Part shown: piece by piece, positions 18,888 to 19,625 of the stretch
How the letters are laid out: every line of letters begins with the position of its first letter
How positions within the stretch are numbered: the first letter of the stretch is position 1
Virus record (IMG/VR): IMGVR_UViG_2534681674_000017
Strand: one strand, 5' to 3'
DNA: 22,409 nt
Origin: a virus
Lineage: Duplodnaviria; Heunggongvirae; Uroviricota; Caudoviricetes
The notes under the pieces: generated by a model
What the model saw: the letters and a program-made list of their open reading frames with translations, nothing else
Told to the model about the DNA's origin: nothing
Database searches by the model: none
Made by a program: the position numbers and the translations under genes

Positions 18888-18963
18888 GGCCCTTTAGCTC
18901 AGTGGTGAGAGCGAGCGACTCATAATCGCCAGGTCGCTGGTTCAAATCCAGCAAGGGCCACCA
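18888..18963 (+). tRNA. ileZ: tRNA-Ile2 (anticodon CAU, lysidine-type), ileZ-like
   Basis: 76-nt cloverleaf folded by hand: acceptor GGCCCTT/AAGGGCC, D-arm GCTC...GAGC, anticodon loop CTCATAA (CAT), T-arm GCTGG-TTCAAAT-CCAGC, encoded CCA; close to E. coli tRNA-Ile2. Confidence 0.8.
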
Positions 18964-18970
18964 TCACATA

Positions 18971-19047
18971 CCGCCATTAGCTCATCAGGAAAGAGCGCCA
19001 GCTTTCGAAGCTGGTTGCGCGGAGTTCGGGTCCCCGAAGGCGGTCCA
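18971..19047 (+). tRNA. argN: tRNA-Arg (anticodon UCG) candidate, argN-like, with imperfect stems
   Basis: 77-nt candidate: anticodon stem CCAGC/GCTGG with loop TTTCGAA (TCG), D-arm GCTC...GAGC, T-loop TTCGGGT, encoded CCA; one A-A mismatch in the acceptor stem and one A-C mismatch in the T-stem. Confidence 0.5.
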
Positions 19048-19060
19048 TTATCTGTATCCT

Positions 19061-19137
19061 GCGTTGTTAGCTCAGCCGGACAGAGCAATTGCCTTCTAAG
19101 CAATCGGTCACTGGTTCGAATCCAGTACAACGCGCCA
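19061..19137 (+). tRNA. argO: tRNA-Arg (anticodon UCU, rare AGA/AGG codons), argO-like
   Basis: 77-nt cloverleaf: acceptor GCGTTGT/ACAACGC, anticodon stem ATTGC/GCAAT with loop CTTCTAA (TCT), T-arm ACTGG-TTCGAAT-CCAGT, encoded CCA. Confidence 0.8.
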
Positions 19138-19153
19138 CACTTATTTTCCCTGG

Positions 19154-19178
19154 CTCGCTTTTGCGGGCCTTTTTTTAA
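19154..19178 (+). terminator. Intrinsic terminator after the tRNA cluster
   Basis: Hairpin GGCTCGC-TTTT-GCGGGCC (19154-19171) followed by TTTTTTT (19172-19178). Confidence 0.5.
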
Positions 19179-19625
19179 ATGTCTCACAATTCAGGCGGTT
19201 GACTGTTGTCTGGTTTGCGGGGAGTTTGTTAAAAGAAACTGGCATGGTGAATCCCCCTGTGCGGAGGGGCAATCAGCGAGTAGGTATATGGGATAATCGC
19301 GGATTCAGGTGCTGGTACTGAATTCACCGGGAGGCACCCGGCACCATGCAATGGCACATAGCGCCACTCTCCAGCCCCTCTCCGGAGGGGCTTTCTTATG
19401 GACAAAAAAAGCCCGCGCAGGGAGACGCGGGCGGCAAGGAATAAACAACAAAACGTGAAGTAATATTTCAGCTGGCGAATAATATCCGACAGTAATCACT
19501 CTGCGCAATAGCGCGGCCTTTTTCGTATTGCGGGCTGTTGTCTCTCTTCTGCCATTGTCCTGTAACTTCCGGACTTCAGCCCGCTCCTCATTTTACTCAC
19601 AATATTATCCCGGCCGGGAGGATTC

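Follow-up and report, generated by a model that had tools for sequence, protein, structure and literature searches.

An stx-negative late region of the Sp4 type, with a tRNA operon, two small RNAs and an interrupted nanS-p gene

When a phage late region carries three tRNA genes and a sialate esterase gene in the order known from Shiga toxin (Stx)-converting phages, but no stx genes, has the toxin been lost or was it never there? This question is raised by a stretch of 22,409 nucleotides from a tailed phage (IMG/VR record IMGVR_UViG_2534681674_000017), referred to here as the window. A preliminary description, made from the letters alone, read its gene order as Q, tRNA trio and esterase gene, and took it for either an stx-negative relative of an Stx phage or a phage that had lost its toxin. 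We conclude, with a probability of about 0.9, that this is the cargo ('moron') slot that follows Q in a lambdoid prophage of the Sp4 type, now degraded, from attaching-and-effacing or Shiga-toxigenic E. coli, and that its lineage is one without stx. Slots of the Sp4 type are already known; one is annotated in the genome of E. coli O157:H7 Sakai, and its small RNAs (sRNAs) are in the literature.

The cargo slot and its place in an Sp4-type prophage

Between positions 14528 and 20904 the window is 99.6-99.8% identical to Sakai prophage Sp4, an IS insertion apart, and over 17954-20904 there are only 7 differences. The Sakai record lists ECs1083 (RusA), ECs1084 (Q), ECs1085 (CAAX protease), ECs1086, ECs1087 (AraC family), ileZ1, argN1, argO1 and ECs1088, and the window follows the same order from Q to the esterase gene (Table 1). 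Near-identity and gene order thus both identify it as a prophage of the Sakai Sp4 type. In the genome closest to the window, OkiPb01713, the prophage adjoins yccA, as Sp4 does in Sakai.

Table 1. Features of the cargo region and the evidence for each (positions are those of the window)
Feature	Position	Strand	Evidence
Antiterminator Q gene, ECs1084 homologue	14865-15245	+	Pfam Phage_antitermQ PF06530, E 4.9e-52
CPBP/CAAX-type intramembrane protease gene, ECs1085 homologue	15392-16216	+	Pfam Rce1-like, E 2.2e-19; annotation
IS3-family element, IS629/IS1203-like	16648-17953	+	ALIL pseudoknot, 115 bits; HTH_Tnp_1 and rve domains
AraC-like regulator gene, ECs1087 (psrA)	18146-18859	+	HTH_18 and HTH_AraC domains
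Promoter-like site TTGATT-17-TATTAT, candidate tRNA-operon promoter	18849-18877	+	Consensus scan only; putative function
ileZ, tRNA-Ile2 type, anticodon CAU	18888-18963	+	ARAGORN; Rfam 72.5 bits
argN, tRNA-Arg(UCG), degenerate allele	18971-19047	+	ARAGORN; Rfam 42.9 bits
argO, tRNA-Arg(UCU)	19061-19137	+	ARAGORN; Rfam 70.1 bits
Intrinsic-terminator-like hairpin and T-run after argO	19152-19177	+	Terminator scan; alignment to Stx2a phage
Empty site; Stx2 phages have the 1335-bp stx2AB cassette here	19176-19179	.	blastn against Stx2a phage and Sp5
STnc100-family sRNA (RF02076), EcOnc05 of Sakai Sp4	19213-19403	+	Rfam 138 bits, E 9e-31
Minus-strand RNA convergent to the STnc100 sRNA, EcOnc08/21/42	19404-19675	-	Probe match; terminator scan; 5' end placed from the published size
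nanS-p-type sialate O-acetylesterase gene, ECs1088 homologue, truncated (5' 1279 nt, 426 codons)	19626-20904	+	Pfam
ISEc8 (IS66 family) within nanS-p, running off the window	20905-22409	-	IS66 transposase domains

The preliminary description had Q standing next to the tRNA genes. While the trio and the esterase gene do occur in the proposed order, Q lies 3.6 kb from the tRNA genes, and the CPBP protease gene, an IS3-family element and ECs1087/psrA intervene, as does a short TrmB-like pseudogene. The Q gene is also annotated as an antiterminator in both Sakai Sp4 and OkiPb01713, and the CPBP protease gene is cargo downstream of it. The AraC-like regulator shows 0 amino-acid differences from the Sakai ECs1087 protein, and its gene ends 29 nt before ileZ. 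The name psrA is used here with a caveat, as the literature differs; ECs1087 of Sp4 is named psrA in PMC13502914, whereas a review (PMC10877973) gives that name to Z1789 of OI-50. The gene is rich in ATA, AGA and AGG codons (29, 12.6 and 12.6 per 1000).

Downstream of the CPBP gene, positions 16324-16379 resemble what comes directly behind Q in phage H-19B (77% similarity, E 6.5e-5), and a hairpin of terminator type, with a T-run, is found at 16358-16373. The stretch may be a pR'/tR'-type element placed 1.1 kb downstream of Q, past the CPBP gene.

The IS3-family element sits between the ECs1086 homologue and psrA, where it breaks the alignment to Sakai; Sakai Sp4 has no such element at this site. 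A second IS3-family copy (also IS629/IS1203-like, with an ALIL frameshift pseudoknot) lies at 2695-4004 on the minus strand, where it splits an exonuclease gene; in OkiPb01713 this first copy along the prophage is found elsewhere, in ydaT. The early region also contains a DicF antisense RNA at 5702-5753 (-) (Rfam, 77 bits) beside a dicB-type region, and a RelE/ParE-RelB toxin-antitoxin pair at 7189-7476 (-) and in the neighbouring ORFs, as annotated at the near-identical locus of OkiPb01713. The prophage as found in that genome has the effector genes nleL and espN and a frameshifted espK (locus 33534-41601); most of its head genes are lost and gpJ is truncated, making it a degraded, effector-carrying prophage.

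A tRNA operon of three genes

Across the 22.4-kb window, ARAGORN reports three tRNA genes and no more, each on the plus strand, confirming the three calls made earlier by eye. Rfam agrees, with all three scoring above the gathering score of the tRNA model (29), and the anticodon order CAU, UCG, UCU on one strand is that of an ileZ-argN-argO cluster. All three genes are full length and encode their CCA ends. The promoter-like site upstream ends 11 nt before ileZ, and a terminator-like hairpin follows argO, so that promoter-like site, tRNAs and terminator form one compact unit. Our literature search found no paper treating ileZ, argN and argO together.

Both ileZ and argO fold into a canonical cloverleaf. 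The ileZ gene has the same sequence as its counterparts in Sakai Sp5 (ileZ2) and an Stx2a phage, and matches K-12 ileX, a tRNA-Ile(CAU), at 68/76 positions, with a compensated (paired) change at 6:67. On the strength of this homology we read it as tRNA-Ile2 rather than tRNA-Met. Its first base, 18888, is G in the window and A in Sakai Sp4 ileZ1; the 1:72 mismatch therefore belongs to the Sakai copy and not to the window copy.

The middle gene, argN, had been suspected of being weak on account of two stem mismatches. Both are there: acceptor pair 6:67 is A.A, and one T-stem pair is A.C. Among the three genes, argN has the lowest Rfam score. Its T loop also reads TTCGGGT, with G at position 5, where other alleles have TTCGAGT; the changed base is A58 in standard tRNA numbering, which is nearly invariant. 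At 42.9 bits, the allele falls below the 50.4-54.8 bits of other argN alleles. In argN2 of Sp5 and argN of the Stx2a phage every stem is paired and the T loop is TTCGAGT, while argN of phage Nil3 has the T-stem mismatch only; the window allele is identical to Sakai argN1. From its sequence, it is reasonable to suspect that argN is a weak or decaying tRNA, and with three structural lesions it may be non-functional.

Could the trio be something other than phage cargo? A recent preprint (bioRxiv 10.64898/2026.05.13.724894) reads tRNA-like sequences near prophage sRNAs as insertion-site remnants, an idea put in general terms for tRNA matches near Pas sRNAs; carried over to the window, it would make these genes the remains of an att site rather than functional cargo. 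The trio, however, occupies the middle of the late region, with 19 kb between it and the prophage's integrase end, and consists of full-length genes with encoded CCA, a promoter-like site and a terminator. It is found at the same place in phages Nil3 and PPwrbA_EH2201 and in Stx2a phages, and neither att-like repeats bounding the trio nor a truncated copy of a chromosomal tRNA locus were seen. Given this late-region position, the intact genes and their constant place in sequenced phages, we reject the att-site explanation and grant it next to no probability.

As phage cargo, the three genes would form a self-contained operon, running from the promoter-like site through ileZ (CAU), argN (UCG) and argO (UCU) to the terminator. 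The tRNAs would then provide for the decoding of AUA and AGA/AGG, rare codons that AT-rich phage cargo uses, and argN would decode CGA.

The stx site, the small RNAs and the esterase gene

The window carries neither stxA nor stxB and so is not that of an Stx-converting phage. We searched for toxin remnants by tblastn at permissive settings (word size of 2, E-values up to 100), with the Stx1A/B proteins of phage H-19B and the Stx2A/B proteins of an Stx2a phage as queries against the window and against 19100-19700, and obtained chance-level matches only; the best Stx protein match (E-value 0.047) lies elsewhere in the window, and nothing in 19100-19700 is significant. A word-7 blastn search with both stx cassettes likewise returned only chance-level matches and no remnant. 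The earlier statement that stx is absent thus survives the tBLASTn check that had been suggested for it.

Alignment to stx-positive phages locates where the toxin genes would be. In the Stx2a phage Stx2_EC3283, the left flank (window 18885-19175) matches 2874-3165 at 93.5% identity and the right flank (19180-19723) matches 4501-5054 at ~86%; the 1335-bp gap between them holds stx2A (3219-4178) and stx2B (4190-4459). Sakai Sp5 gives the same picture, its left flank matching at 4763-5054 and its right flank from 6390, again with a gap of 1335 bp. The expectation that stxA and stxB lie between the tRNAs and the esterase gene in Stx phages therefore holds for both, and in the window the two flanks meet at 19176-19179. 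On the left, the boundary is the T-run of the argO terminator, which is the final segment in common with the sequence upstream of stx2A; on the right, it falls just before TCACAATTCAG, ~30 nt upstream of the start of the STnc100 model. These two boundaries fix the cassette site. At the ends of the stx2 cassette, a search for direct repeats or microhomology turned up weak similarities only (TATATCTG / TAATCTG / TAAATGTC), none of them convincing. On the right-hand side, H-19B and PPwrbA_EH2201 differ in how the homology extends, and we claim no mechanism.

In principle, the window could descend from an Stx2 phage in which a clean deletion, running from the argO terminator to the sRNA, recently removed stx2AB. 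The junction lies within a few bases of the cassette ends in the Stx2a phage and Sp5, and a precise deletion would leave the same. Set against this, there is no stx DNA or protein remnant, and identity of the flanks to the Stx2a phage is no higher than 93.5% on the tRNA side and ~86% on the sRNA side, with 71-91% to Sp5 on the right. Set beside the stx-positive phages examined, these flanks have diverged too far for a recent deletion. The Q gene is also of a different family, with 3.6 kb of other cargo between it and the tRNAs. Moreover, the toxin-free arrangement is widespread; the psrA-tRNA-sRNA block recurs at 99% identity or higher in ~650 of 5426 complete E. coli genomes, and the toxin-free junction between argO and the sRNA is contiguous in 1746 of the 5426, among them non-STEC strains (UTI89, for example) (query of 360 nt from argO to the sRNA end, counted as contiguous when at least 80% was covered in one place). 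We consider recent loss very improbable. Of the two explanations first offered for the window, that of an stx-negative relative stands, on the homologous tRNA trio and esterase gene, and that of loss finds no support. As judged from these comparisons, the lineage probably just lacks the stx cassette, and the absence of toxin would follow from this. As the toxin-free junction is common across E. coli, synteny of tRNAs and esterase gene is not in itself a sign of a former Stx phage.

The interval between argO and the esterase gene (19180-19625) had been described as holding only hairpins. It in fact contains an STnc100-family sRNA and a convergent RNA on the minus strand. The STnc100 match spans the full covariance model (positions 1-206), including the conserved core and terminator, and lies far above the RF02076 gathering score of 47; a terminator scan places the sRNA's terminator-like hairpin at 19373-19392. 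The same scan gives the minus-strand RNA a strong terminator at 19432-19411 (-). Hfq-bound RNAs were mapped in Sakai by Tree et al. (2014; PMC4104026), whose Table S2 lists three of them in Sp4: EcOnc05 at 1179806-1179914 (+), ~222 nt on Northern blots; EcOnc08 at 1179938-1180010 (-), ~271 nt and grouped with EcOnc21 and EcOnc42; and EcOnc21 at 1180016-1180101 (-). These Sp4 coordinates map to window positions 19275-19383 (+) and 19407-19479 (-). In addition, the Northern probe target of EcOnc05 exactly matches window 19271-19305, and the EcOnc08/21/42 probe sequence exactly matches 19478-19512 (both from the supplement of PMC4104026). Both RNAs are thus presumably made and bound by Hfq here too, as is known from the near-identical Sakai Sp4 sequence (PMC4104026).

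Searching the interval with the Rfam models of AsxR and AgvB (E up to 1) gave no match, so the minus-strand RNA belongs to neither family. The folding z-scores of the single sequences are unremarkable (-1.9 for the plus-strand RNA and -0.6 for the minus-strand RNA) and add nothing to the covariance-model match. At a length of ~271 nt, as in Sakai, the minus-strand RNA would run antisense to the start of nanS-p, covering its ribosome-binding site and first codons. A promoter-like site is found at 19632-19604 (-).

Alternatively, the stretch 19229-19508 might encode a small protein on the minus strand instead of RNAs. The minus strand of the window has ORFs of 58 and 67 aa here, the Stx2a phage has a minus-strand ORF of 101 aa, and RefSeq places a 'hypothetical protein' under this stretch. 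In the window, however, one extra A in an A-run splits the 101-aa ORF into two frames, and RefSeq marks its ORF as incomplete. The opposite strand scores 138 bits against a structured-RNA model, and Sakai yielded Hfq-bound RNAs from each strand of the same sequence. The frame split, the STnc100 match and the Sakai RNAs lead us to reject the protein as very improbable and to annotate two RNA genes.

How the STnc100-type sRNA is transcribed is a separate matter. We found no sigma-70-like promoter inside the segment common to stx-positive and stx-negative phages. Maturation by read-through is hinted at by length, since the stretch between the slot boundary at 19180 and the terminator at ~19400 is as long as the published transcript (~222 nt). 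There is perhaps a small chance that the EcOnc05-type sRNA has no promoter of its own and is matured from read-through of the cassette upstream; equally tentatively, the source would be the tRNA operon in the window and the stx2AB mRNA in Stx2 phages. Were this so, the level of the sRNA would report transcription of the slot.

Beyond the sRNAs, the nanS-p-like gene of the preliminary description is borne out by an ORF starting at 19626 with DUF1737 (E 9e-16) and SASA (E 6e-13) domains. It is 99.8% identical to Sakai as far as 20904, where ISEc8 begins, a truncation that the earlier account had not mentioned. The gene is cut after codon 426, at 20904/20905, and its C-terminal domain is gone (the Sakai ECs1088 protein has 616 aa); the annotation of the closest genome describes it as 'missing C-terminus'. 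The ISEc8 copy is 99.8% identical to a copy in Sakai.

Taken together, the slot runs from Q through the CPBP protease gene, the IS3-family insertion, ECs1087/psrA, the tRNA operon and two convergent sRNAs to the nanS-p gene cut by ISEc8. Once the prophage is induced, Q-modified transcription would be expected to pass the terminators and reach nanS-p and the lysis genes. Two insertions stand in this path, the IS3-family element, placed between Q and psrA, and ISEc8, which interrupts nanS-p, and they may alter transcription. The region is thus best labelled as the late region of an stx-negative lambdoid prophage of the Sp4 type, with psrA, the ileZ-argN-argO operon, two sRNAs already known to associate with Hfq, and a nanS-p gene disrupted by ISEc8. 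Past such annotation, the region is of little importance, although the comparison does define the stx2 cassette as a discrete 1.3-kb module between the argO terminator and the STnc100-type sRNA.

Comparison with known systems

The slot is most like that of Sakai Sp4, with which it shares its gene order, an identical PsrA-type protein and an sRNA interval that is identical but for one T in a T-run. It differs from Sp4 in the IS3-family element and in the ISEc8 copy within nanS-p. The site itself is known for such cargo; moron insertions are tolerated downstream of PR', and sRNAs in convergent orientation occur at this site in Sp3, Sp4, Sp5, Sp9, Sp10, Sp11, Sp15 and Sp17 (PMC4104026).

Stx2 phages (Sp5; Stx2_EC3283, LC645409) share the order of ileZ-argN-argO, argO terminator, STnc100-type sRNA and nanS-p; the tRNA block is 93.5% identical over 291 nt, and ileZ is identical. 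In these phages, however, Q lies ~440 nt before the tRNAs, argN is fully paired, and the stx2AB module separates the argO terminator from the STnc100-type sRNA, whereas in the window both abut. In Sp5, another module, probed under the names EcOnc27 and EcOnc02/AsxR, takes up the 3' half of the sRNA-pair region. The Stx1 phage H-19B is without tRNAs, yet STnc100 follows stx1B.

Two stx-negative phages show the same junction as the window. In Nil3 (AM051322), the trio runs straight into the STnc100-type sRNA, with 98.4% identity over 18885-19579, but Q and tR' lie directly upstream of the tRNAs, without psrA. PPwrbA_EH2201 (LC645427) has the same direct tRNA-sRNA junction, although it is only ~86% identical and has ~28 extra bases after the argO terminator.

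The sRNA also has known counterparts. STnc100 lies directly downstream of stx2B in Stx2 phages (PMC12370729; PMC12711010), and a 2026 preprint relates it to PasD and associates it with esterase genes (bioRxiv 10.64898/2026.05.13.724894). Within the STnc100/EcOnc27/EcOnc05/PasD group, the window copy has the position just upstream of an esterase gene seen for PasD2 and STnc100. It scores 138 bits, compared with 179-186 for copies behind stx, and its variable middle segment is shorter.
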